This document shows, one piece after another, positions 2,829 through 32,443 of a stretch of DNA of 64,000 nt. The stretch's first letter is position 1. Every line of letters begins with the position of its first letter. The translations under genes and the position numbers were made by a program. The notes under the pieces were generated by a model. It was not told the origin of the DNA, searched no databases, and was given only the letters and a program-made list of their open reading frames with translations. The stretch covers positions 373,659-437,658 of the forward strand of contig JAXGPP010000008.1 of the NCBI GenBank assembly GCA_040766885.1, written 5' to 3'. This DNA is from Thermoguttaceae bacterium. Its GTDB lineage: Bacteria; Planctomycetota; Planctomycetia; Pirellulales; Thermoguttaceae.

Positions 2829-3396
2829 CTCAACACAAAGCCTTTCGCAGAAATGATTTGCGAATGGCTTTTTCTGTGCGCTTGCCAAGGGCGTTGGATT
2901 CGCCATCTAATGCAGCTTGCCGATTGCCTGTCCGGAAGAGGGGGGCGGCAACTACATCCCGCCTGACTCCCGACGACGAACCAGCGCGGCACCGCGCCCC
3001 CTGTCGGTCTCCCCCTGCTGGAACTCGTGTCGTTGGATGCTGATCTCCCGCAGCTGCCGAAACTTGGCCCATCGTCGGCGGCAGAACGGCCGGATGATTT
3101 TCGTGCACCGGTGGGAATACACACCCGTCGAAGCGCGTCCTTATAAGAGGTGCAGCCGCTTCTGCACAAAAGCCGACGAACCTTTTCGTAGTTCGCGGCG
3201 TCTATCAGTATCAGACGGGTGGAGAGAGTTTCAGGCGATCCAAGAGACTGCGAGAAGGGTGATGACTTCGTTCCGGTTGGGTATTACGAGCGAACCAGGA
3301 TGCAAAGGGCGATATGCCGATCAACCGGCGAATACCCTGCCCATGCATCCTTTGCGCTTGTGACGCTTGACCTTACGTCAGCGAGGGAAATAGAAA

Positions 3397-3428
3397 CCCG
3401 GCGTCACAAACGACGCCGGGTTTTTTGT
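3397..3428 (+). terminator. Intrinsic (rho-independent) terminator: hairpin followed by a T-run, separating the upstream non-coding stretch from the tRNA array.
   Basis: CCCGGCGTC-acaaa-GACGCCGGG forms a 9-bp GC stem, followed by TTTTTTGTT. Confidence 0.6.
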
Positions 3429-3429
3429 T

Positions 3430-3502
3430 GGGCTGGTAGCTGAGACGGTGTAGCGCCTGGCTGAAGACCAGGAGACGAGGGTTCGATTCACCTCCCGGCC
3501 CA
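3430..3502 (+). tRNA. tRNA-Phe(GAA)-like with a non-canonical D-loop and T-loop
   Basis: Acceptor GGGCTGG/CCGGCCC (one G-U). Anticodon stem CCTGG/CCAGG with loop CTGAAGA (GAA). T region GAGG-GTTCGATTCA-CCTC, i.e. an enlarged loop. Discriminator A. Confidence 0.55.
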
Positions 3503-3560
3503 CTGCGATCCGCCTGCGCGCCACCAGTAATTTGGCCACGTGGAATGTGCGCGCCGACAC

Positions 3561-3634
3561 GGCTCGTTCGTCTATCGGTACGAGGACGCCGGCCCTTCAA
3601 GCCGGAAAGGCGGGTTCAACTCCCGCACGAGCTA
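3561..3634 (+). tRNA. tRNA-Glu(TTC)
   Basis: Acceptor GGCTCGT/ACGAGCT. Anticodon stem CCGGC/GCCGG with loop CCTTCAA. T-arm GCGGG-TTCAACT-CCCGC. Confidence 0.65.
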
Positions 3635-3744
3635 CTGAGGACCGAACGGGGCAAAGGAAAGGGTATCGCCTGGTCGTTGGGAGCACGTAGACGCAACCTT
3701 CGAGACCTGCCATCCCGACTGGATTGGCAACGACTTTGGCACAT

Positions 3745-3816
3745 GGTAGTCGAGGGCCGGTTGCCCGAACACGGCTGATAACCGCGTAGTGCTGAGTTCG
3801 ACTCTCAGGGCTACCA
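3745..3816 (+). tRNA. tRNA-Ile(GAT)-like
   Basis: Acceptor GGTAGTC/GGCTACC (one G-U). D-arm GGGC-CGGTT-GCCC. Anticodon loop CTGATAA on a 4/5-bp stem. T-arm CTGAG-TTCGACT-CTCAG. Confidence 0.55.
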
Positions 3817-3881
3817 CTGGACGCGAGGAGCAATGGCATGACACATAGACGACTCAAACGCATACATCCGGCCCGAATTTC

Positions 3882-3953
3882 GGGGTCGTGGTGCAATGGC
3901 AGCACACCGGACTTTTAATCCGGCAGGTGAAGGTTCAAGTCCTTTCGGCCCCA
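3882..3953 (+). tRNA. tRNA-Lys(TTT)
   Basis: Acceptor GGGGTCG/CGGCCCC. D-arm TGGTGCAATGGCAGCACA. Anticodon stem CCGGA/TCCGG with loop CTTTTAA. T-arm GAAGG-TTCAAGT-CCTTT. Confidence 0.65.
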
Positions 3954-3963
3954 CTCATGAGCG

Positions 3964-4036
3964 TGCAGGCCAAAAGAAGAGCAGATTCGTTGGAATAGCG
4001 TGGCCGGAAGTTCGACTCTTCCCGCGCCTGCTGCCA
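3964..4036 (+). ncRNA. Aberrant tRNA-like element: acceptor plus an extended T-arm, with an encoded 3' CCA, but no recognisable D-arm or anticodon arm.
   Basis: T-arm GCCGGAAG-TTCGACT-CTTCCCGC. The 3' side GCCTGCT-G-CCA pairs with the 5' TGCAGGC. The 32-nt body does not fold into D and anticodon arms. Confidence 0.35.
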
Positions 4037-4052
4037 ACGACATGTACAGAAA

Positions 4053-4125
4053 GGGATCAAGGTGTTAGCGGCAGCATAGCGGACTCTTAATCCGCGAGGT
4101 GAGGGTTCAAGTCCCTCTGGTCCCA
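4053..4125 (+). tRNA. tRNA-Lys(CTT), second copy
   Basis: Acceptor GGGATCA/TGGTCCC. Anticodon stem GCGGA/TCCGC with loop CTCTTAA. T-arm GAGGG-TTCAAGT-CCCTC. Confidence 0.7.
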
Positions 4126-4136
4126 CTGAGAGAATC

Positions 4137-4208
4137 GCACTGGTCGTCCAGTGGCAAGGACACCGCACTCGTAACGCGGCAACGTGGGTTCGACTCCCAC
4201 CCGGTGCT
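4137..4208 (+). tRNA. tRNA-Thr(CGT)-like
   Basis: Acceptor GCACTGG/CCGGTGC (one G-U). T-arm GTGGG-TTCGACT-CCCAC. Anticodon loop CTCGTAA on a 4/5-bp stem CCGCA/CGCGG. Confidence 0.55.
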
Positions 4209-4240
4209 CTTGATCTTTGACAATCCGACACGCTTGTAGC

Positions 4241-4311
4241 GCGCCCATGATGTAGCGGCAGCCTGCCGCCTTGCCGAGGCGGAAGTGCGGGTTCAACTCC
4301 CGCTGGGCGCT
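4241..4311 (+). tRNA. tRNA-Gly(GCC)
   Basis: Acceptor GCGCCCA/TGGGCGC. Anticodon stem CCGCC/GGCGG with loop TTGCCGA. T-arm GCGGG-TTCAACT-CCCGC. Confidence 0.65.
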
Positions 4312-4320
4312 CTTGATCGA

Positions 4321-4414
4321 CAGGACGTAGGAAAGTCTGGTATTCCGCCGGGCACCGACGCGCAGCGTTGGTTGCGGGCGCACGAGATCGCCGGTTCAAA
4401 TCCGGCCGTCCTGA
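4321..4414 (+). tRNA. Class-II-length (94-nt) tRNA-like gene; anticodon arm not resolvable
   Basis: Perfect 7-bp acceptor CAGGACG/CGTCCTG. D-arm GGAA-AGTCTGGTA-TTCC. T-arm GCCGG-TTCAAAT-CCGGC. The internal 40 nt does not give a canonical anticodon stem-loop. Confidence 0.4.
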
Positions 4415-4421
4415 CTCTCGT

Positions 4422-4496
4422 TGCGGTGGGACCCGTGCTGGTACGGGTAGGCGGCTGTTAACCGCCCCGACGCAGGTTCGATTCCTGCCACCGCAG
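4422..4496 (+). tRNA. tRNA-Asn(GTT)
   Basis: Acceptor TGCGGTG/CACCGCA. D-arm CCCG-TGCTGGTA-CGGG. Anticodon stem GGCGG/CCGCC with loop CTGTTAA. T-arm GCAGG-TTCGATT-CCTGC. Confidence 0.7.
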
Positions 4497-4559
4497 CCTT
4501 TGGGAGAAAACAGAAGGTCAAGCCGGACCACCGCCGCGCGGCAGCACCCGCGATGCCAC

Positions 4560-4616
4560 TACGTTCGAAGCGGGACGAGCTTTGCGGTCTGGAGGGTTCG
4601 GCTCCCTCACCTTCCG
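4560..4616 (+). ncRNA. Truncated tRNA-like fragment (T-arm plus a short acceptor-like helix)
   Basis: T-arm GAGGG-TTCGGCT-CCCTC. The flanking AAGCGGG ... CCGCTT could pair as a minihelix. No D or anticodon arms. Confidence 0.3.
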
Positions 4617-4624
4617 CTTGCGAC

Positions 4625-4697
4625 GCGCCCTTGGCCGATCGGCACGAGGCATCAGCCTTCCACGCTGAACAGGCGGGTTCGACTCCCGCAGGGCGCT
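4625..4697 (+). tRNA. tRNA-Gly(TCC)
   Basis: Acceptor GCGCCCT/AGGGCGC. Anticodon stem TCAGC/GCTGA with loop CTTCCAC. T-arm GCGGG-TTCGACT-CCCGC. Confidence 0.65.
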
Positions 4698-4713
4698 CTC
4701 GCAGCGACAATGA

Positions 4714-4784
4714 TCGGGGATCGGCTAGCGGCAGGCCATCTGGCTTTGAACCAGAAAGTGGAGGTTCGACCCCTCCTCCCCGAA
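4714..4784 (+). tRNA. tRNA-Gln(TTG)
   Basis: Acceptor TCGGGGA/TCCCCGA. Anticodon stem TCTGG/CCAGA with loop CTTTGAA. T-arm GGAGG-TTCGACC-CCTCC. Confidence 0.65.
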
Positions 4785-4822
4785 CATGCAGGCGGACGAC
4801 TGTGTCTCGATAGGCAACACAA

Positions 4823-4893
4823 TGCGGGATCATCCAACGGCAGGATGCGACGCTCTGAACGTCGTCATGTTGGTTCGAGTCCAGCTCCCGCAG
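4823..4893 (+). tRNA. tRNA-Gln(CTG)
   Basis: Acceptor TGCGGGA/TCCCGCA. Anticodon stem CGACG/CGTCG with loop CTCTGAA. T-arm GTTGG-TTCGAGT-CCAGC. Confidence 0.65.
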
Positions 4894-5003
4894 CTTGGTA
4901 TGACGAACAACAAAGTCCGTGAGGGCCTGGAAATCGCGAAACCCGAATAATGACGCGCAACTCTGTTGTTCATTATTCGTCATCCGAATTCCTGCTTCCC
5001 CTC

Positions 5004-5074
5004 GGGGTCATGGTCCAACAGGACGACGCTGGCTCCGCAAGCCAGAGATCCGGGTGCGATTCCCGGTGACTCCA
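5004..5074 (+). tRNA. tRNA-Ala(CGC)-like; the T-loop reads TGCGATT rather than TTC...
   Basis: Acceptor GGGGTCA/TGACTCC (one G-U). Anticodon stem CTGGC/GCCAG with loop TCCGCAA. T-arm CCGGG-TGCGATT-CCCGG. Confidence 0.6.
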
Positions 5075-5085
5075 CTTGAAAGCGC

Positions 5086-5157
5086 AGCCCCGTGGTCCAA
5101 CGGCCACGACGCCTGGCCTACACCCAGGAAACGATGGTTCAACTCCATCCGGGGCTA
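5086..5157 (+). tRNA. tRNA-Val(TAC)
   Basis: Acceptor AGCCCCG/CGGGGCT. Anticodon stem CCTGG/CCAGG with loop CCTACAC. T-arm GATGG-TTCAACT-CCATC. Confidence 0.7.
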
Positions 5158-5253
5158 CTGTGGCAATGATGGAGTAGCAGCGCTGAATGATGAAACGTGA
5201 GCTCCCCCTGGGCACTTCATCATTCATCCTTCGATATTCATCATTCTGCGTCC

Positions 5254-5328
5254 GTCCTCGTGGAGCAGTCCGGAGTGCTCGCCTGCCTGTCACGCAGGAG
5301 ATCGCGGGTTCAAATCCCGTCGAGGGCG
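5254..5328 (+). tRNA. tRNA-Asp(GTC)
   Basis: Acceptor GTCCTCG/CGAGGGC (one G-U). D-arm GAGC-AGTCCGGAGT-GCTC. Anticodon stem CCTGC/GCAGG with loop CTGTCAC. T-arm GCGGG-TTCAAAT-CCCGT. Confidence 0.65.
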
Positions 5329-5342
5329 CTTTCGACAGTAGC

Positions 5343-5417
5343 GGCGCGGTACGCAAACCGGCAAAGCGGCGAAGCTCAAATCTTCGTGACCTGCGGGTTC
5401 GACTCCCGCCTGCGCCA
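5343..5417 (+). tRNA. tRNA with a Leu anticodon (CAA) but a type-I body (short variable loop)
   Basis: Acceptor GGCGCGG/CTGCGCC (one G-U). Anticodon stem CGAAG/CTTCG with loop CTCAAAT. Variable region only ~6 nt. T-arm GCGGG-TTCGACT-CCCGC. Confidence 0.55.
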
Positions 5418-5427
5418 CTGAGAACAT

Positions 5428-5511
5428 GCGTCGGCTGGGCATCGGCGTGCCCAACTGCCTGTAAAGCAGCCAGCCCGCAAGGCTATGCAGGTTCAACTCC
5501 TGCCCGGCGCA
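5428..5511 (+). tRNA. tRNA-Tyr(GTA), class II with a long variable arm
   Basis: Acceptor GCGTCGG/CCGGCGC (one G-U). Anticodon loop CTGTAAA. Long variable arm CCAGCCCGCAAGGCTAT. T-arm GCAGG-TTCAACT-CCTGC. Confidence 0.7.
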
Positions 5512-5521
5512 CTTTCAACAT

Positions 5522-5594
5522 GGCCCGTTCATCTATTGGCGAAGGACATCGGCCCCTCACGCCGGAAAGGCGGGTTCGATTCCCGCACGGGCTG
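5522..5594 (+). tRNA. tRNA-Glu(CTC)
   Basis: Acceptor GGCCCGT/ACGGGCT. Anticodon stem TCGGC/GCCGG with loop CCCTCAC. T-arm GCGGG-TTCGATT-CCCGC. Confidence 0.65.
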
Positions 5595-5602
5595 CTGAGC
5601 AT

Positions 5603-5684
5603 GACCAAGTGGCGCAACTGGAAGACGCGCGACGCTCAGAACGTCGTGCCGCAAGGCATGGGAGTTCGAATCTCCCCTTGGTCA
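5603..5684 (+). tRNA. tRNA-Leu(CAG), class II
   Basis: Acceptor GACCAAG/CTTGGTC. Anticodon stem CGACG/CGTCG with loop CTCAGAA. Long variable arm TGCCGCAAGGCAT. T-arm GGGAG-TTCGAAT-CTCCC. Confidence 0.7.
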
Positions 5685-5793
5685 CTCTTGGTTACGTGGT
5701 TGGTTGTGCGGCACTTCCCTGCGGTCTCGACCGCGAAGCCGGGCTCGTTACACTCGCCCTTGCCTCATTCTCGGCCCGGCAACCAAAAGGCAT

Positions 5794-5863
5794 TGCAGGC
5801 GCGGCAGGTGCCGAACTGGCTCCCATAAGGCCGGTGCGCCCGGTTCGATACCGGGGCCTGCAA
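5794..5863 (+). tRNA. tRNA with a CAT anticodon (Met or Ile2), with an unusual CC at positions 32-33
   Basis: Acceptor TGCAGGC/GCCTGCA. Anticodon stem TGGCT/GGCCG (two G-U) with loop CCCATAA. T-arm CCCGG-TTCGATA-CCGGG. Confidence 0.55.
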
Positions 5864-5879
5864 CTTTGAAAAACACGCT

Positions 5880-5948
5880 GCGGGTGGGCGCAGGCTCAAC
5901 CGGGCTTCATAAGCCTGGAATGTCGGGTGCAACTCCCGGACCCGCCAC
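5880..5948 (+). tRNA. Second CAT-anticodon tRNA-like gene (69 nt, degenerate)
   Basis: Acceptor TGCGGGT/ACCCGCC (one mismatch). Anticodon region GGC-TTCATAA-GCC. T-arm TCGGG-TGCAACT-CCCGG. Confidence 0.45.
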
Positions 5949-5953
5949 TTGCG

Positions 5954-6027
5954 ACCGGGTACGCGAATTGGCATAGCGACGAGGTCGAGGGCCTCGTGTC
6001 TGTGGGTTCGACTCCCACTCCGGTCAC
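5954..6027 (+). tRNA. tRNA with a Leu anticodon (GAG) but a type-I body
   Basis: Acceptor GACCGGG/TCCGGTC (one G-U). Anticodon stem (A)CGAGG/CCTCG(T) with loop TCGAGGG. 5-nt variable loop. T-arm GTGGG-TTCGACT-CCCAC. Confidence 0.55.
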
Positions 6028-6040
6028 TGACTGCACGACG

Positions 6041-6111
6041 GGCTCGTGGTCCAACGGGACGACACCAGCGCGGCATGCTGGAAACGCGGGTTCAACTCCC
6101 GCCGGGTCCAT
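6041..6111 (+). tRNA. tRNA-Ala(GGC)-like
   Basis: Acceptor GGGCTCG/CGGGTCC (two G-U). Anticodon stem CCAGC/GCTGG with loop GCGGCAT. T-arm GCGGG-TTCAACT-CCCGC. Confidence 0.55.
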
Positions 6112-6117
6112 TGGTTA

Positions 6118-6215
6118 AAAGCAATCAGCTTTCAGCTTTCAGCTTTCAGCTTTCAGTGATGAGTGTAAATCGGACGGCTGAAAGCTGACCGCTGAGAGCT
6201 GATAGCTGCCCATAT
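6118..6215. repeat. Heptamer tandem repeat (TCAGCTT)x4 followed by its imperfect inverted complement, which could form a long hairpin
   Basis: The sequence is cagctttcagctttcagctttcagctttcag ... ggctgaaagctgaccgctgagagctgatagctg. Confidence 0.7.
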
Positions 6216-6290
6216 GGTGTTCGTGGTGTAGCGGTCGCTGCATGGCTGGCTGTGAACCAGCAGGTGGGAGTTCGACTCTCCCCGGGCACC
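6216..6290 (+). tRNA. tRNA-His(GTG) with the G-1:C73 hallmark
   Basis: An extra 5' G(-1) at 6216 faces discriminator C6290. Acceptor GTGTTCG/CGGGCAC. Anticodon stem GCTGG/CCAGC with loop CTGTGAA. T-arm GGGAG-TTCGACT-CTCCC. Confidence 0.75.
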
Positions 6291-6311
6291 CCTTTCGGAA
6301 AGGAGATCACG

Positions 6312-6908
6312 ATGGTCGCCAAGGTACTTGAGCAACCGACGCTGGTGCTGAACCGCAACTGGCAGCCGGTCCACGTGGCAACCGTGGAGCGTGCGCTCGT
6401 GCTGCTCTGGAACGACTCGGCCCGCGTGGTCGATCCGGCCGACTTTCAGCTCTACGACTGGGCCGACTGGTCGAAGCTGCAGCCTGGCCATGGCGAGGCG
6501 TTCGTCCAGGCGGTCCGGTTCAAGCTGCGCGTGCCGGAGGTCGTTGTCCTCAGCGGCTACGACCGCCTGCCGGTGGCCCGCGTGACGTTCAGCCGGCGCA
6601 ACATCTTCAAGCGCGACCACTACACCTGCCAATACTGTAGCGCCCGACCGGGCAGCGAGGAATTGACCGTGGACCACGTGGTGCCGCGGGCGCAGGGTGG
6701 TGTATCAAGCTGGGAGAACTGCGTGCTGGCCTGCACGGCCTGCAACAAGCGGAAGGCCGACCGCACGCCGGAGCAGGCGGGCATGAAACTTCGCAAGAAG
6801 CCGGTCCGCCCGGAGTGGAAGCCGCTTTACGCGGACCGCGAGGTGCGGATCGCCAGTTGGTCGAAGTTCATCAGCGAAGCCTACTGGAACGTGGCACTGC
6901 GCGAGTAG
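6312..6908 (+). CDS. HNH endonuclease embedded in the tRNA array
   Basis: Strong RBS GGAAAGGAG 6 nt before the ATG at 6312. The HNH motif reads DHYTCQYCSARPG ... LTVDHVVPRAQGG ... NCVLACTACNKRKADRT (His-Asn-His with CxxC/CxxC zinc ligands). Confidence 0.85.
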   Translation: MVAKVLEQPTLVLNRNWQPVHVATVERALVLLWNDSARVVDPADFQLYDWADWSKLQPGHGEAFVQAVRFKLRVPEVVVLSGYDRLPVARVTFSRRNIFKRDHYTCQYCSARPGSEELTVDHVVPRAQGGVSSWENCVLACTACNKRKADRTPEQAGMKLRKKPVRPEWKPLYADREVRIASWSKFISEAYWNVALRE

Positions 6909-6916
6909 TGCCGTTA

Positions 6917-6948
6917 CGCCCGGTCCCCGATCACTGATCGGGGACCAC
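6917..6948 (+). terminator. Perfect 11-bp GC-rich hairpin immediately after the HNH stop; no T-run (likely a terminator or RNA-processing hairpin)
   Basis: GGTCCCCGATC-actg-GATCGGGGACC. Confidence 0.45.
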
Positions 6949-6951
6949 TAC

Positions 6952-7021
6952 AGGAGTGTCCTCCTGGGAGAGGAAGCGGTCTCCAAAGCCGCCCGACAGG
7001 GTTCGAATCCTTGCACTCCTG
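6952..7021 (+). tRNA. tRNA-Trp(CCA)
   Basis: Acceptor AGGAGTG/CACTCCT. Anticodon stem GCGGT/GCCGC (one G-U) with loop CTCCAAA. T-arm CAGGG-TTCGAAT-CCTTG. Confidence 0.65.
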
Positions 7022-7047
7022 CTTTTGGAAGATGAGAACGAAGAACT

Positions 7048-7119
7048 GCCGGCGTGGCCGAACAGCGAGGCGGCGGTCCTGTAAACCGCACAATGCTGGT
7101 GCAATTCCAGCCGTCGGCT
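7048..7119 (+). tRNA. tRNA-Thr(TGT); T-loop TGCAATT
   Basis: Acceptor GCCGGCG/CGTCGGC (one G-U). Anticodon stem GCGGT/ACCGC with loop CCTGTAA. T-arm GCTGG-TGCAATT-CCAGC. Confidence 0.65.
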
Positions 7120-7187
7120 CTGAAAAGAGCTCTCAGCAGTCCTGATTTGAGCTGATCGCTGAGGGTTGGCGGCTCACGGGCCGCGAT

Positions 7188-7259
7188 GTCCCGATAGTGT
7201 AGCGGATCGCATCGGAGCCTCCGAAGCTCCAGGCCCTGGTTCGAATCCAGGTCGGGATA
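7188..7259 (+). tRNA. tRNA-Arg(CCG)
   Basis: Acceptor GTCCCGA/TCGGGAT. D region TAGTGTAGCGGATCGCAT. Anticodon stem GGAGC/GCTCC with loop CTCCGAA. T-arm CCTGG-TTCGAAT-CCAGG. Confidence 0.7.
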
Positions 7260-7301
7260 CTCAAGAGGGTGAGACATCGTTGTGCATCCACTCTACTGCT
7301 T

Positions 7302-7374
7302 GTCCTCGGAGTGTGCCGGATCAGCACGCGACCGTGCGAAGGTCGTAGACCAGGTTCGACTCCTGGCGAGGACG
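7302..7374 (+). tRNA. tRNA-Arg with an unusual GCG anticodon
   Basis: Acceptor GTCCTCG/CGAGGAC. Anticodon stem CGACC/GGTCG with loop GTGCGAA. T-arm CCAGG-TTCGACT-CCTGG. Confidence 0.6.
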
Positions 7375-7422
7375 TTTTCGAAGCGTGCGGCCACCGCGAA
7401 ACGGCGGCGGTCGCACGCGAAG

Positions 7423-7494
7423 GGCGCTGGAGCCAGACGGCAAGGCAACCGCCTGCAAAGCGGTTTTACGCGGGTTCGACTCCCGCCTGCGCCT
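7423..7494 (+). tRNA. tRNA-Cys(GCA)
   Basis: Acceptor GGCGCTG/CTGCGCC (one mismatch). Anticodon stem ACCGC/GCGGT with loop CTGCAAA. T-arm GCGGG-TTCGACT-CCCGC. Confidence 0.65.
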
Positions 7495-8075
7495 CTGAGG
7501 CGGTCCGACTGCCGGTTCAGACTACATCCGTTGAAAAGGTGAACCGGTCCGAACCAATTCTCGTCGGCCTTCCTCTAACAAAGATGTCCAACTGCCTGCC
7601 GGGACTACATTCACTGTAACTGAACCGTCTCGGCGAAAACTTCGTTGGGCGTTGTGAGAACACATCGGGCGACTGCCCGGTTGGAGTACATATCGGTTCA
7701 AATCCGGTCGCCCCGACTGAACACTTGCGCGAGCGGGGCGTGGCTCAACGGTAGAGCACCTCTGGCCACCACCTCGTCGCCTATTGAATACAGACCGACT
7801 GCCGGTTGGAGTACATGCCTGAAGAGCCGGGGGTTGTGGGTTCGAATCCCACCAGCGCCACTCACTCACTTGAGCGCTGTAGCTCAATGGTAGAGCACCG
7901 TAAAGTTCTCTGACCAACCCCTCGTCGGTCCTTTTGAGACAACAGGAGACACGACCCGACTGACCGAGTGGAGTACATCCACCATCACCAAGCCTGGGAG
8001 GCGGGAGCTTCCCAATACGGACGGATCTGCGGATTCGACCGTACGGCGCCTCTGCTCATCCCTCGTCGGGTCATG
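7495..8075 (+). ncRNA. Cluster of 4-5 repeated tRNA-like modules sharing a bipartite conserved motif; candidate Y-RNA (YrlA-like) genes directly upstream of the Ro60/Rsr gene
   Basis: The motif GACTGCCGGTTGGAGTACAT and its variants occur at 7507, 7591, 7671, 7797 and 7958. Each is preceded 25-37 nt upstream by CTCGTCGG-like boxes at 7561, 7640 (variant), 7772, 7921 and 8063. Units C (about 7734-7860) and D (about 7872-8050) carry canonical D-arms (GCTCAACGGTAGAGC and GCTCAATGGTAGAGC). Unit C has a T-arm GTGGG-TTCGAAT-CCCAC and an acceptor-like pairing GGCGTGG/CAGCGCC around a ~78-nt insert in place of the anticodon arm. Unit B (about 7675-7726) is an acceptor (TCGGGCG/CGCCCCG) plus T-arm (ATCGG-TTCAAAT-CCGGT) mini-structure. 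GGTCCGA occurs twice in unit A. Confidence 0.4.
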
Positions 8076-8091
8076 CTATGTGAAGGAGGTC

Positions 8092-9723
8092 ATGATGGCC
8101 AACAAGAACCTGTTCGCCAGCCTGAAGAGCCGTTTCGTCCGGGCCGATGCTCGGAATGAGGCAGGAGGCCGCGCGTACGCGCTGGAGCCGAAGCACGCCC
8201 TGGCGCAGCTTGCCGCCACGGGCTGCTTCAACGGCGCCTACTACGCCGGCGCCGACGAGCAATTGGCCACGCTGAAGACGCTCGTCGAGCAGGTGGCCGA
8301 CAATGCCTTCCTCGCGAAGCTGGCGGTTTACAGCCGCCAGCGGGCGATGATGAAGGACATGCCGGTGGCCTTGCTGGTCGTGCTGTCGAAGCGCGATCCG
8401 GCCTTGTTCCGCAAGGCGTTCAATCGCGTGGTGGACAACGGCCGTACCCTGCGCACGATGGTGCAATTCGTCCGCTCGGGCCAGTTCGGCCGCAAGAGCC
8501 TGTCGTACGCCCTGCAGCGGGCTGTCCAGCGGTGGCTGAACTCGGCTTCGGTCGAGAAGCTGCTGTCGGCCTCGATCGGCAACGATCCGAGCCTGCGGGA
8601 CGTGCTGCGGCTGGCGCGGCCGACCCCGGCCGACAACGCTCGGCGTGCCCTGTTCGGCTGGCTGACCGATAAGCCGGTTGAGAAGTGGGCGCCGGCCACC
8701 GAGGCCGACCTGCCGGAGGAGGTCCGTGCGCTAGAGGCGTTCCGCCAGGCGGAGACGGCCGAGGTGCAACTCCAGGCTCTCGGCAAGCTGCGCGCTCGCT
8801 GGGACCTCTTGGCCGATGCGGCCAAGGGTCCGGCGGTTTGGGCGGAGGTTGCCCGGAAGATGGGGCCGCAGGCGCTGCGGATGAACCTCAACACGCTGGT
8901 CCGCCAGGGCGTCATCGGCCCGGATGCCAAGGGAGAGATGGTCGACTATGTGGCGGCGCGGCTGGCCGATGCCGAGGAGATCCGCCGCTCGCGGCAGTTC
9001 CCGTACCAGTTCCTCGCTGCATACCTTAACGTCGGTGACGGCGTTCCGCAGAAGATCAAGTCCGCCCTGCACAAGGCGGCGGAGATCGCCTGCGGCAACG
9101 TGCCGGAATTGCCGGGTCCGATCGTGATCGGACTCGACGTATCGGGCTCGATGAGCATGCCGGTTACGGGTAACCGCGGCCGGGGCGCGACGAGCAAGAT
9201 GCGCTGCGTGGACGTAGCGGCCCTGTTCGCCGCTGCCATCCTGCGCCGCAATCCGGAGAGCGTGGTCATCCCGTTCGACACGTCGGCTTACGAGGCCAAG
9301 GTTGATCCGAGCGACTCGGTCCTCAGCCTGGCCGATCGGCTGGCCCGTTTCGGTGGTGGCGGCACGAACTGCTCGCTGCCGTTGGCCGCGGCCAATGGCT
9401 GGTACGCAAGCCGGAAGTTCGCCGGCTGTGTGCTGGTGAGCGACAACGAGAGCTGGGTCGGCACAGGCCGCGGCGGCTCAACGGCCGTCATGACCGAGTG
9501 GCAGGCGTTCGTCCGCAACCAGGTGCGGTTGCACGGCCGGGGTTTTTCAGGCCCGAAGCTGGTCTCGATCGACCTCCAGCCGTACACCACGACCCAGGCC
9601 CCGGAGCGCAGCGACATCCTGAACGTCGGCGGCTTCAGTGACGCCGTGTTCAGCGTCGTGGCTGCCTTCCTGGCCGGCGACGGCGGCCGGTTCGTCGCCG
9701 AGGTCGAAGCGGTCGAGCTGTAG
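8092..9723 (+). CDS. rsr: Ro60/Rsr orthologue: TROVE-domain ribonucleoprotein with a C-terminal von Willebrand A (MIDAS) domain
   Basis: Strong RBS AAGGAGG at 8083-8089; the ORF opens with a GTG at 8080 and in-frame ATGs at 8092 and 8095. The N-terminal ~350 aa has a Ro60-like pattern ([22 protein letters not shown] ... [33 protein letters not shown]). The C-terminus is vWA-like with [14 protein letters not shown] ... GGGT ... SDNESW. Confidence 0.7.
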
Positions 9724-9744
9724 ACCGGCAGAACCTGATGCAAG

Positions 9745-9778
9745 TCAGCCAGCGCCCATTCGGGGCGCTGGCTGACAC
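9745..9778. terminator. 14-bp perfect hairpin between the convergent rsr and glycoside hydrolase genes (bidirectional terminator-like)
   Basis: GTCAGCCAGCGCCC-attcg-GGGCGCTGGCTGAC. Confidence 0.5.
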
Positions 9779-20900: not shown

Positions 20901-21667
20901 GTCCTTTCCGCCAGGGACGGCATGAAGGGCCGAAACAGATCTCCCTCAGTTCCGGCTGCCATGAAACAGCCGGGTGTCCAAGACGACCCTCCACTCTCCC
21001 CCCAAAACATTCAACTCCGGCGGCTGCCACCTTTGTCGTCCCCGATAGGGCTGAATACTGCCGCTTAGCGGCAACTGCATGATTAGCCGGGTGTGCAGCG
21101 GAGCGCACGCCGCCACCCATCCCCATCGGCCTTGCCCGCCTCCGCTCATCCCTCTCCCAGCCGCGCACGCGGCGGCAGCCAATAGCCCACGGCGTAAGCC
21201 GTGGGACCCCGGCCCCGAAAGACGTTTTCTTCCCAAGCCCCATCAGGGGCGACAGCCTACACCGCCGAGCCGAGAACGCGCCGCGTGCCATGTCCTCGGC
21301 TCCGCCGTAGACATGCAGGAACCGCCGCGACCAACTCGCCGCGGAGGCTTTCAGAATCGACCTCCAACTCGCCGCCAGTCCGCTTGGGCAAGAGGAACAG
21401 AACCTTGCGCCAGGCCGTCGCGAAGGCCGCCGCCGTGACGGGGAAGTCTACTTCCGCATGGTTCGCGTTCTCCAGGTAGACGTACTGCCATCCCCGTTCG
21501 TGATCCCCCGAGTGTCTTACACCGGTGTAATAGCCCGTCAAGAGAGCCCCGGGCGTGTTCTGCCGCCGCGTTGGGCGGCATAGCACGCCGGCCCCGTGGG
21601 GCGTTGCTCCGCAACTGTTATCGTAGCCGTGACTTGTGCGGGCACGGACGAGAAGTCCTGGGAGTGT

Positions 21668-31049: not shown

Positions 31050-32381
31050 ATGGCGAGCATTCTGGGACGCAACGGCCGCCGAAGCGTGCAATTCTACGGG
31101 CCCGACGGCGCCCGCAAGACGCTTTCGCTTGGCAAGGTTTCTCAGCGGCAGGCGGAAACCGTCCGGCTGAAAGTCGAATCCCTCCTGGCGTCGGCAATCA
31201 CGGGCTGCGCTCCAGACCGGGAAACGGCGGCTTGGCTGACCACGCTGGACGACGTGATGACTGACAAACTGGCGAGCGCTGGCTTGATTGCCCGGCGATC
31301 GTCGGCGACCCTGGGGGGCTTCCTTGCCGAGTACCTGACAAGCCGGATCGACGTGAAGCCGGCAACCCGGGAAGTTTGGTCGCAAGTCGAGCGAAACCTC
31401 AAAGAGCATTTCAGCGAAGGCCGGGCGCTGCGGACGATCACTCCCGGCGATGCGGAAGGCTTCCGGTTGTACTTGGTGGCCCAAGGACTAGCCCCGACCA
31501 CGGTTTCCAAGCGGCTGCAATTCGCCCGGCAATTCTTCCGCGCGGCGATGAAACACAAGCTGATCACCGAGAACCCGTTTGCCGAAGTGCGATCGAAGGC
31601 GGCGACGGATTCGGGCCGGCAGCGGTTCATCAGCCGGGACGACACGGCGAAGCTACTGGAAGCCTGCCCGTCCCTGGATTGGCGGCTGATCGTCGCCCTT
31701 GCCCGTTACGGCGGGCTGCGGTGCCCGAGCGAAGTCCTGTCGCTCCGCTGGCAGGACGTGGACGCGGCCCGCGGCCGGCTGACCGTGACGAGCCCCAAAA
31801 CCGAGCATCACCCGGGCAAGGATACGCGGGTCATTCCCCTGTTCCCCGAACTGCGGTCGATCCTCCAGGATGCTTTCGACGCGGCTCCTGACGGATCCGT
31901 GTACGTCGTCAACGAACGGTTCCGGCAATCGTCCCAAGGCAAGGCCGGCTGGAGGAACTGCAACCTCCGCACCAGCTTTGAGAAGATCATCCGGCGGGCC
32001 GGGCTGACCCCCTGGCCCCGGCTGTTCCACAACCTGCGATCCTCCCGCGAAACGGAACTGGTCCAGGCTTATCCCGTCCAGGTGGTCACGGCTTGGCTGG
32101 GCAACACCCCGGCGATCGCTTTGAAACACTACCTCCAGACAACGGATGAGCACTTCGCCCAAGCGTTGTCCGGCAGCGCGCTGCTGCCGGCGCTGCCGTA
32201 CCCGTCCGCAAACGTCACCCCGAGCGGAACATTGCCCGTCGTAACCTGTGGTAAGGCTTCGCAAGAAAACGAAACAACCCCTTGCGAAACAAGGGGTTGT
32301 ACTGAAACTTACGACCGTTTACCAAGCCTTACGAAAATCATCAGCGGAGAGGACAGGATTCGAACCTGCGGACCCCTTTGA
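31050..32381 (+). CDS. int: Tyrosine-type site-specific recombinase / phage integrase
   Basis: 443 aa. The catalytic region has RLIVALARYGGLRCPSEVLSLRWQDV, HNLRSSRETELVQ and AWLGNTPAIALKHYLQ (R..H..R..Y). The 3' end abuts tRNA-Ser. Confidence 0.85.
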   Translation: MASILGRNGRRSVQFYGPDGARKTLSLGKVSQRQAETVRLKVESLLASAITGCAPDRETAAWLTTLDDVMTDKLASAGLIARRSSATLGGFLAEYLTSRIDVKPATREVWSQVERNLKEHFSEGRALRTITPGDAEGFRLYLVAQGLAPTTVSKRLQFARQFFRAAMKHKLITENPFAEVRSKAATDSGRQRFISRDDTAKLLEACPSLDWRLIVALARYGGLRCPSEVLSLRWQDVDAARGRLTVTSPKTEHHPGKDTRVIPLFPELRSILQDAFDAAPDGSVYVVNERFRQSSQGKAGWRNCNLRTSFEKIIRRAGLTPWPRLFHNLRSSRETELVQAYPVQVVTAWLGNTPAIALKHYLQTTDEHFAQALSGSALLPALPYPSANVTPSGTLPVVTCGKASQENETTPCETRGCTETYDRLPSLTKIISGEDRIRTCGPL

Positions 32382-32443
32382 GGAGGTCACGGGTTTAGCA
32401 AACCCGCGCTTTCGACCACTCAGCCACCTCTCCAAGTGCGTGC
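32355..32443 (-). tRNA. tRNA-Ser(GCT), class II; integration target
   Basis: The reverse complement reads GGAGAGGTGGCTGAGTGGTCGAAAGCGCGGGTTTGCTAAACCCGTGACCTCCTCAAAGGGGTCCGCAGGTTCGAATCCTGTCCTCTCCG. Acceptor GGAGAGG/CCTCTCC, anticodon loop TTGCTAA, long variable arm. Confidence 0.8.

Follow-up and report, generated by a model that had tools for sequence, protein, structure and literature searches.

Why a planctomycete should keep some thirty divergent tRNA genes packed together on one strand is the question raised by the window, that is, the whole stretch of 64,000 nucleotides analysed here from a Thermoguttaceae bacterium (GenBank assembly GCA_040766885.1, contig JAXGPP010000008.1, positions 373,659 to 437,658), in which such genes fill positions 3430 to 7495. 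An earlier note, made from the letters alone, had described about 30 tightly packed tRNA genes there and regarded them as a phage- or integrative conjugative element (ICE)-type array that buffers translation against tRNA depletion. The count is borne out by the 29 genes found with ARAGORN, Rfam RF00005 and orthology, 21 of them at or above the RF00005 gathering score. What that note had missed is an HNH endonuclease gene within the array, Y RNAs and a gene for Rsr (Ro60) behind it, and a conserved leader in front of it. Our best reading of the sequence is that the array would be the tRNA section of one transcription unit of about 6.6 kb, extending from about 3172 to 9776. On balance we lean towards the view that this unit is an accessory L-array switched on by transcriptional read-through when ribosomes slow, supplying atypical spare tRNAs together with Ro and Y RNA. 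The cassette joins two open questions, the purpose of long tRNA arrays and the targets of bacterial Ro60/Y RNA, and the leader in front of it, which looks like a translation-sensing switch, gives an experimental handle on both.

The cassette is not peculiar to the window. Rsr homologues with 67-89% identity were located in 80 species-representative genomes labelled Thermoguttaceae, Pirellulaceae, Planctomycetaceae, Gemmataceae, Gimesia, Rhodopirellula and others (related loci are cited below by L numbers), and linkage was counted on the 42 planctomycete Rsr loci that have 7 kb or more of upstream sequence. Same-strand tRNA genes lie directly upstream of Rsr in 30 of these 42 loci, with 20-42 tRNAs in 16 of them, and the related loci run from 0 to 42 tRNAs through every stage of erosion. 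The order of the cassette is constant, reading Phe-Glu-Pro-Pro-Ile-Lys-Ile(UAU)-Lys-Thr-Gly-Pro-Asn-Ser-Gly-Gln-Gln-Ser and so on to His-[HNH]-Trp-Thr-Arg (four to five copies)-Cys-[Y RNAs]-Rsr. All-against-all clustering of open reading frames (ORFs) identified Rsr and HNH as the only protein genes conserved across the loci; none of the genes flanking the cassette in the window recurs in any of the 80 loci, and the flanking DNA differs at each locus. One genome holds both an intact copy with 36 tRNAs (L004) and a decayed one with three (L003), and a complete Pirellulaceae chromosome (L037) carries Rsr without adjoining tRNAs. In the synteny comparison suggested by the earlier note, the same cassette recurs across planctomycetes with a patchy number of tRNAs and differing surroundings. 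Identity between window tRNAs and the genes at corresponding positions in other arrays is 80-99%, and for this reason we regard the window array as a partly eroded member of a conserved lineage; judging from gene content, it is partly eroded, with 29 genes compared with about 42 in the fullest arrays.

Some arrays elsewhere carry additional cargo, namely SPFH/Band-7 and YbjN genes, an RNA ligase gene (PF09414) that immediately precedes the Y RNAs, the reverse transcriptase of a group II intron, and DUF4291 (L014:7145-8023 and 8188-8832; L025:8021-9025; L016:7001-7837; L030:7053-8753; L060:5400-5999), and a YbjN-like ORF stands immediately after the leader in some metagenome contigs. Fragments of a near-identical cassette were also seen in two contigs binned as Acidobacteria, a 2,966-bp contig of a Solibacteraceae metagenome-assembled genome (L062) and a 2,731-bp contig of Candidatus Sulfotelmatobacter (P0116), with Rsr 71-75% identical and, in L062, a tRNA-Cys upstream of Rsr. 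Either these fragments are mis-binned or the cassette has been transferred beyond Planctomycetota.

In the DNA 5' of tRNA-Phe, an alignment of 16 loci revealed a conserved leader of about 250 nt. In this leader, a putative promoter block of the extracytoplasmic function (ECF) sigma type occupies 3172-3215 (+), with GAACC at 3178-3182 and CGTC at 3199-3202 separated by 16 nt. The pattern GCGAACC-N16/17-GCGTCTAA is 80-99% conserved in 88 distinct leaders, and presumably acts as a promoter, a function that we assume from its likeness to the AAC...CGT pattern of ECF-sigma promoters. Downstream of this block, a leader ORF of 33 codons (3262-3363, +), encoding MTSFRLGITSEPGCKGRYADQPANTLPMHPLRL and ending in UGA, is preceded by a purine-rich tract resembling a Shine-Dalgarno (SD) sequence, and SD-like purine tracts likewise precede the ORF starts at the genome loci. 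The UGA stop is invariant. The ORF is in frame from its ATG in 21 of 24 genome loci, with 31-44 codons, and in 99 of 111 metagenome contigs retrieved by the RNA pattern of the leader, in which it specifies 88 distinct peptides of 29-44 residues; the peptide consensus is M.S[LI][RW].S..E....G..A[DG]Q.AN.LP..PLRL. A frame test on the landmark at the leader start in the metagenome contigs gave 73 cases in frame versus 12 out of frame. The metagenome matches to the leader number 120, and about five chance hits devoid of U-run or ORF were kept in the counts, which makes them conservative.

The invariant UGA sits within GUGAC(A/G)C, the 5' strand of a helix formed with the 5' arm of a terminator. 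In the window this antiterminator strand, GUGACGCUUGAC (3360-3371, +), overlaps the stop at 3361-3363 and pairs with 3396-3407, while the intrinsic terminator (3396-3426, +) consists of a 10-bp stem (3396-3405/3412-3421) and a U-run ending 3 nt 5' of tRNA-Phe. Both alternative helices are conserved. The terminator is 98.8% paired, shows four compensatory pairs and a stability of -21.5 kcal/mol, and none of 500 shuffles was as good. For the 12 pairs of the antiterminator, 86% of cells are paired versus 26-44% when the partner is slid, with double changes at three pairs, and the window's own variant, GACGC/GCGUC, is compatible with both helices. The distance between the U-run and tRNA-Phe is about 2-7 nt in the window, L003, L004, L006, L014, L024 and L035, leaving no room for another promoter, so that the array would be transcribed only by read-through of the terminator. 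The leader occurs once per locus and always 5' of the first tRNA, including loci that keep just 1-7 tRNAs; in the metagenome contigs 914 tRNAs were counted in 204 kb downstream of it versus six in 273 kb upstream. Rfam families gave no meaningful match in the leader, the only hit being anti-hemB at 20 bits (E 0.35). From its sequence, the leader has the anatomy of a trp-type attenuator, with a leader ORF predicted to be translated.

At the other end of the array, tRNA-Cys is followed on the plus strand by five tandem Y-RNA-like modules with the common motif CGACUGCC..GGAGUACAU. Module 1 (7497-7575, repeat family D7), a YrlB-like stem-loop with the Ro-stem motif, and module 2 (7581-7653), also YrlB-like, are weak matches to YrlB at 17.5 and 18.6 bits. 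Module 3 (7666-7786), YrlA-like with a tRNA-like domain, and module 4 (7792-7934), YrlA-like, match RF02553 with 35.2 bits (E 6e-6) and 54.5 bits (E 1.5e-11), both below its gathering score of 69. Module 5 (7953-8073) has the same terminal stem motif, with a copy at 7957, and a central part that is unclassified. Copies of the Y-stem motif number 194 in the 131 kb within 1.8 kb upstream of Rsr and 12 in the other 1.1 Mb, an enrichment of about 140-fold, and at least one copy is present in 74 of 77 loci. With module 4 as query, 109 nhmmer hits were obtained, reaching most of the 80 loci; of the 27 pairs in an alignment of 45 YrlA-like copies, 12 show compensatory changes, and the pairs form the terminal stem, T-arm, acceptor-like stem and D-arm of the YrlA architecture. 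The Rsr/Ro60 orthologue itself (8092-9723, +; 543 aa, strong SD) contains the TROVE (PF05731) and vWA_Ro60 (PF25045) domains and aligns over its full length with Deinococcus radiodurans Rsr 2NVO (E 7e-25), as well as with 9L5Y and 1YVP. A perfect 14-bp hairpin at 9744-9776 (inverted repeat I17), which has no U-run, lies in the interval between Rsr and a convergent gene and is likely to be the 3' end of the unit. That convergent gene and those beyond it are unrelated to the cassette (GH127, penicillin amidase and unknowns).

The HNH endonuclease gene (6312-6908, +; 198 aa, strong SD, Pfam HNH E 1e-14) occupies the slot between tRNA-His and tRNA-Trp. An HNH gene is found at the same slot in 23 loci and the slot is empty in some arrays, for example L012, L045, L046 and L060; protein identity is 76-97% among the top 120 homologues. 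The window protein is also 34% identical to an HNH protein encoded on a Nostoc plasmid directly upstream of a 24-tRNA L-array. We considered plasmid HNH homologues as array markers and dropped them, as the Acaryochloris and Tsukamurella copies have no tRNAs nearby and only the Nostoc copy does. Because of these two plasmid homologues, the HNH family is, as far as its distribution in sequences tells, broader than the arrays.

How far do the array tRNAs depart from ordinary ones? The window array, all on the plus strand, comprises 29 tRNA genes, one of them disrupted by a hairpin insert, and two tRNA fragments. ARAGORN called 27 genes, RF00005 contributed one further gene, for Ala-CGC (5004-5074), and BLAST orthology against other arrays a second CAT tRNA (5879-5948), and the isotypes agree with those listed in the earlier note. 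The 21 genes that reach the RF00005 gathering score do so with 40.6-70.7 bits (E 4e-5 to 2e-13); the Tyr, Asn and Trp genes score 30-40 bits against the related tRNA-Sec model, and the remaining ones were found by ARAGORN or orthology only, though they share 90-99% identity with orthologues elsewhere. The 29 genes span 4.07 kb, a density of about 7 per kb, and so qualify as a tRNA array unit as defined in PMC4758250, which asks for 20 or more tRNA genes with 2 or more per kb; ARAGORN finds the order of the array non-periodic, with no repeats in the isotype pattern. The spacers had been put at 5-80 nt; they measure 4-109 nt, apart from a single gap of 659 nt that contains the HNH gene. The structural oddities listed previously are real: G-U pairs and one T-T mismatch in the acceptor stems, G54 (TGC T-loops) in the Ala-CGC, Thr-TGT and second CAT tRNAs, and C33 in place of U33 in 7 of 26 window tRNAs. 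The absence of an encoded CCA also stands, and the single exception claimed for it was not found when the sequences of the window array genes were checked. The canonical tRNA-Lys(CTT) just upstream of the array (2756-2829, 73.4 bits) also lacks an encoded CCA; the absence is therefore no deviation from the host, and we dropped it as a mark of foreignness.

The view of the array as an accessory, non-housekeeping and non-canonical set is supported. It has no intact Pro or Ser gene, both of which must therefore be encoded elsewhere in the cell, and many isoacceptors are missing. Its Lys-CTT gene scores 52 bits versus 73 bits for the canonical one located 1.2 kb upstream, and a tRNA-Ser-GCT lies outside it at 32344-32433. 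The isotype-score comparison that the earlier note had called for, made on four full arrays, gave 31-77 bits for array tRNAs versus 59-73 bits for eight flanking non-array tRNAs, and, as described above, relatives carry anything from 0 to 42 such genes.

Divergent as they are, the array tRNAs appear to be maintained. The tRNA-Leu(GAG) of 23 arrays retains its cloverleaf with compensatory changes at 12 of 22 pairs, and G3:U70 is retained in both window Ala genes. C33, present in 111 of 820 array tRNAs across the loci, is distributed by tRNA type, being found in 20 of 23 Leu-GAG, 12 of 17 Glu-CTC and 11 of 19 Thr-CGT tRNAs, and four isoacceptors of tRNA-Leu are of class-I size (74-81 nt). These sequence patterns indicate that the divergent tRNAs would be under selection rather than in random decay, though whole genes are often lost.

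We propose the following working for the unit. In healthy translation a ribosome at the leader stop would mask the antiterminator strand, the terminator would form and the unit would be off. Lagging ribosomes, for which tRNA depletion or cleavage, starvation and ribosome inhibitors are candidate causes, would allow the antiterminator to form and RNA polymerase to read through. RNase P/Z-type processing would then free a second set of tRNAs, some with C33 and some being tRNA-Leu of class-I size, and the same transcript would also yield the Y RNAs and the mRNAs of HNH and Rsr. The spare tRNAs would replenish the decoding pool, and Ro with Y RNA, as they do in Deinococcus and Salmonella, would deal with RNA that is damaged or misfolded. 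The mechanism fits the finding that translational stress induces the L-array of Anabaena along with its HNH gene and rtcB (PMC8421152), the response of the Salmonella rsr-yrlBA-rtcBA operon to damaged tRNAs (PMC7790460), and the proposal that phage tRNAs with anticodon-loop changes escape anticodon nucleases (PMC10264068). The earlier idea of buffering against tRNA depletion is consistent with the sequence and is strengthened, though not proven, by the apparently translation-sensing leader and by the type-specific anticodon-loop changes. A more ambitious version, in which the cassette would be a planctomycete translation-emergency operon with an ECF promoter and a ribosome-speed leader gating a complete alternative tRNA set, its anticodon loops altered, together with Ro60/Y RNA, we put forward tentatively, as somewhat doubtful. 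On this version the adjacency would also fit array tRNAs as the origin of the tRNA-like Y RNAs.

Several points weigh against the proposed working. Induction by slow translation, the processing, charging and use of the tRNAs, their nuclease resistance and the substrates of Ro are steps that we infer. The leader ORF contains no run of one codon, unlike leaders of the trp/his type, and hence would sense general ribosome speed; 18 of the 20 amino acids occur in the window peptide, and all 20 in the 52 distinct 33-codon leaders taken together. The covariation of the antiterminator is modest, 39-53 of 500 shuffles equalling the observed values. Third codon positions of the leader ORF are only slightly more variable than the others (1.08 vs 0.92 bits), and its conservation may be partly due to RNA structure. 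A hairpin inside the ORF (3316-3329, GCCG-AUCAAC-CGGC) shows apparent compensatory changes by eye, with the variants GCCGA..UCGGC and GCCGG..CCGGC across the loci; it overlaps the conserved ADQPAN codons, so that RNA and peptide constraint are not separable there. On the side of the tRNAs, C33 could be tolerated drift and not adaptation. Erosion is frequent, 12 of 42 loci having no tRNAs and 14 only 1-19, and arrays acquire inserts and introns, because of which selection on the tRNA part would be weak or episodic; by its sequence the window copy itself is missing about a third of the set.

The competitor that survives best, though we hold it unlikely, is a selfish or near-neutral mobile L-array spread by the HNH protein as a homing endonuclease and lodged beside Rsr and the Y RNAs in an ancestor, in which case the tRNAs would be of little benefit and the leader would be the element's own promoter region. 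Such an element could account for the flanking DNA that differs at every cassette locus, for all the stages of decay, with intact and decayed copies in one genome (L003/L004), for the polymorphic occupancy of the HNH slot and for the colonisation of arrays by a 24-nt palindromic insert, group II introns and other cargo, and L-arrays are regarded as horizontally transferred (PMC8421152, PMC4758250). It is harder to reconcile with a gene order, leader, Y RNAs and Rsr that stay together in several planctomycete families, with tRNAs that covary and retain identity elements, with HNH proteins whose 76-97% identity is unlike that of a decaying homing gene, or with the conservation of an elaborate terminator/antiterminator and its leader ORF.

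We consider it improbable that the array RNAs are mainly non-decoding, serving Ro/Y RNA or tRNA-targeting toxins as partners, substrates or decoys, or having given rise to the Y RNAs. The fullest arrays hold a near-complete set of anticodons in fixed order, aminoacylation identity elements are retained, and anticodon stems and loops are conserved by type, all of which argue for decoding; the junction of the array with Y RNAs that carry tRNA-like T and D arms, the non-canonical C33, G54 and short tRNA-Leu, and covariance scores below those of housekeeping tRNAs speak for the other side.

The framing of the array as cargo of a prophage or ICE is very improbable, and the label given to it by the earlier note is not supported by the available flanks, which show no att repeat. 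The array does stand directly after a canonical tRNA-Lys, a common integration site; HNH genes are well-known companions of phage and plasmid tRNA arrays (PMC5966550), and within a few kb of two distant viral Ro60 genes there are phage tRNA clusters. Against this, the flanking ORFs tested include no gene for an integrase, phage function or conjugation, the window's upstream DNA spanning 2.7 kb, and integration at tRNA-Lys was rejected as its 3' end is not repeated at a second boundary on the far side. Viral carriage was rejected likewise, IMG/VR yielding only four viral Ro60 hits, none with the cassette in this form, and the closest of them (65% identical) having no tRNAs beside it. As no flanking gene is common to the 80 loci, no larger element travels with the cassette. 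Finally, an ordinary housekeeping tRNA operon, as judged from the window and related loci and not from the whole source genome, can hardly be meant here, since the covariance models accept most array genes but intact Pro and Ser and many isoacceptors are missing, canonical Lys-CTT and Ser-GCT lie outside, and relatives, including the complete Pirellulaceae chromosome, have Rsr without adjoining tRNAs.

Ro and tRNA clusters co-occur in large phages too, arranged differently: in L086, a 268-kb viral contig, and L085, a distant viral Ro60 (43-44% identical) lies a few kb upstream of a phage tRNA cluster. Just upstream of the array in the window, a gene for an enhancer-binding protein with GAF, sigma-54 AAA+ and HTH_8 domains (659-2599, +) recalls RtcR of the Salmonella rsr operon. 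It is not conserved beside other cassettes, and control of the array by sigma-54 through this activator was rejected, as no sigma-54 promoter lies upstream of the array and matches in the window are at chance level. Unrelated to the array, an Acido-Lenti-1 RNA (42 bits; Rfam gathering score 37) is located at 21159-21205 (-).

In the window the individual genes, all on the plus strand, called by ARAGORN and scored with RF00005 unless stated otherwise, are as follows. The array opens with tRNA-Phe(GAA) at 3430-3503 (44.3 bits) and tRNA-Glu(TTC) at 3561-3635 (52.9 bits, C33), behind which the 3' half of a tRNA-Pro(TGG) remains as a fragment at 3677-3719 (81-82% to Pro(TGG) of L024/L006 over 43 nt). 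The tRNA-Ile(GAT) at 3745-3817 does not reach an Rfam E of 1 and is 98.6% identical to its L024 orthologue. It is followed by tRNA-Lys(TTT) at 3882-3954 (70.7 bits), tRNA-Lys(CTT) at 4053-4126 (52.4 bits), tRNA-Thr(CGT) at 4137-4209 (56.8 bits) and tRNA-Gly(GCC) at 4241-4312 (56.2 bits). The gene at 4321-4415 (95 nt), called Gly(ACC) by ARAGORN, aligns with intact orthologues as a tRNA-Pro(CGG) disrupted in the anticodon arm by a 25-nt palindromic insert (4350-4374), and the Gly assignment was rejected. Then come tRNA-Asn(GTT) at 4422-4498 (tRNA-Sec model 33.5 bits; 95% to L024), the 5'-truncated 3' two-thirds of a tRNA-Ser(CGA) at 4550-4617 (BLAST 80-83% over 66-68 nt), tRNA-Gly(TCC) at 4625-4698 (53.3 bits), tRNA-Gln(TTG) at 4714-4785 (61.8 bits) and tRNA-Gln(CTG) at 4823-4894 (51.9 bits).

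The middle of the array begins with tRNA-Ala(CGC) at 5004-5075, assigned from Rfam (54.6 bits), orthology and sequence, which bears G3:U70 and G54, and continues with tRNA-Val(TAC) at 5086-5158 (57.3 bits, C33) and tRNA-Asp(GTC) at 5254-5329 (56.1 bits). The tRNA-Leu(CAA) at 5343-5418 (50.6 bits) is 76 nt long, of class-I size and devoid of a long variable arm, an arm that is present in tRNA-Tyr(GTA) at 5428-5512 (tRNA-Sec model 39.9 bits) and in tRNA-Leu(CAG) at 5603-5685 (49.5 bits), on either side of tRNA-Glu(CTC) at 5522-5595 (40.6 bits, C33). Two tRNAs with a CAT anticodon follow, one at 5794-5864 (Met, fMet or Ile2; C33) and the second, with G54, at 5879-5948 (83% to Met(CAT) of L045/L028 over 71 nt). 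The class-I-sized tRNA-Leu(GAG) at 5953-6027 (44.1 bits, C33) is the one whose 23 orthologues covary. Next to it are tRNA-Ala(GGC) at 6040-6110 (49.7 bits, G3:U70, C33) and tRNA-His(GTG) at 6217-6292 (51.2 bits), in which the G immediately 5' of the called gene opposes C73, the ARAGORN start being one base later. Behind the HNH gene, tRNA-Trp(CCA) at 6952-7022 (97% to L024; tRNA-Sec model 30.1 bits), tRNA-Thr(TGT) at 7048-7120 (49.3 bits, C33, G54), tRNA-Arg(CCG) at 7188-7260 (53.1 bits), tRNA-Arg(GCG) at 7301-7375 (94% to L006) and tRNA-Cys(GCA) at 7423-7495 (54.4 bits) close the array.

The insert in tRNA-Pro(CGG) belongs to a palindromic hairpin element of about 24 nt, G-ACCACCGC-UGCG-GCGGUGGU-GCCC or its reverse complement, which is inserted in, or replaces part of, single array tRNA genes in the window and in L002-L006, L009, L016, L018-L020, L026, L028, L029 and L045 (for example at L004:3154, L006:6075 and L016:3686). 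Its place depends on its orientation: copies in one orientation lie in the variable loop or T-stem, and those in the other occupy the anticodon loop and can remove the anticodon itself. Some 35 hairpin-type copies were counted in 1.25 Mb of loci, all within arrays and none in the flanks. The 'long' class-I tRNAs of 88-96 nt that ARAGORN reports at other loci contain this insert and were rejected as such. The long spacers of the window at 6120-6208, 5165-5250 and about 4925-4990, which are tRNA sites in orthologous arrays, hold imperfect inverted repeats, among them an AGCTTTC heptamer run set opposite its complement, the two arms of 31 nt having 87% complementarity; these repeats may be scars or replacements of lost genes.

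Other arrays contain further unusual tRNAs. In three of them the tRNA-Arg(TCT) slot has a stop-reading anticodon (L006:8356-8426, L056:8515-8587 and L061:5794-5866), CTA (amber) once and TCA (opal) twice, which ARAGORN labels Pyl and SeC; these are possible suppressor tRNAs. Full arrays also include a tRNA-Ile(UAU), absent from the window (L004:3545, L006:5761, L012:5869, L014:3121, L060:4547 and others), which is rare in bacteria and would read AUA without lysidine modification; that of L060 is the top-scoring array tRNA with 77.5 bits.

If the proposed mechanism is true, tRNA operons would join the gene classes under leader-peptide attenuation. If the more ambitious version holds, the cell would start to renew its tRNA pool and to clear damaged RNA at the same time, and both bacterial Ro and long tRNA arrays would gain a concrete, testable physiological role. 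The arrays also offer a natural series of non-canonical tRNAs (C33, tRNA-Leu lacking the long arm, hairpin inserts) for studies of decoding and of anticodon-nuclease resistance. Long tRNA arrays, their HNH gene and their induction by stress are already known, and L-arrays have been reported in Planctomycetes (PMC8421152, PMC4758250). The attenuator and the coupling to bacterial Rsr/Y RNA appear undescribed in the literature searched, in which no paper was found to link bacterial tRNA arrays to Rsr or Y RNA, or to combine a tRNA array with a leader-peptide attenuator.

Among known systems, the trn operon and L-arrays of Anabaena sp. PCC 7120 (PMC8421152, PMC10272220) share with the cassette dozens of same-strand, packed, non-periodic, apparently supernumerary and patchily distributed tRNA genes, and the Nostoc plasmid array adds the homologous HNH endonuclease gene (34%). 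The tRNA order of that plasmid array differs from the planctomycete one, however, and the cassette is chromosomal. The Anabaena operon is controlled by promoter direct repeats and the TrcR repressor, whereas the cassette has an apparent leader ORF and terminator/antiterminator and ends in Y RNAs and Rsr, Ro60/TROVE being unmentioned in PMC8421152. The Salmonella rsr-yrlBA-rtcBA operon and Deinococcus Rsr (PMC4201824, PMC7790460) resemble the cassette in having rsr after tandem YrlB and YrlA with a tRNA-like domain, and in a functional tie to tRNA damage, but have no tRNA array. The Salmonella operon further uses sigma-54 with RtcR and encodes RtcB/RtcA, while the window has neither RtcB/RtcA nor a sigma-54 promoter upstream of the array; an RNA ligase (PF09414) does occupy the same place in L016 and L020.

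The sole published link between arrays and Ro that we found is archaeal, a TROVE gene accompanying 20 of 29 tRNA clusters, mostly haloarchaeal (PMC6333295); that link concerns another domain of life and gene content only, with no Y RNAs, leader or fixed order described. Mycobacterial and mycobacteriophage arrays (PMC5966550, PMC9569102, PMC10264068) are similar in their 20-40 tRNAs, HNH genes and companion structured RNA, and in anticodon-loop changes proposed to evade anticodon nucleases. They differ in residing on phages and plasmids, in that the companion RNA is GOLLD and not a Y RNA, and in that no Rsr or attenuator is reported. In the organisation of the leader the closest parallel is provided by the trp/his attenuators, which likewise have a short ORF preceded by an SD sequence, a stop next to the antiterminator strand, terminator and antiterminator helices that exclude each other and a U-run just 5' of the genes; the cassette leader departs from them in having no regulatory codon run and in standing before tRNAs, Y RNAs and Ro instead of biosynthetic genes.

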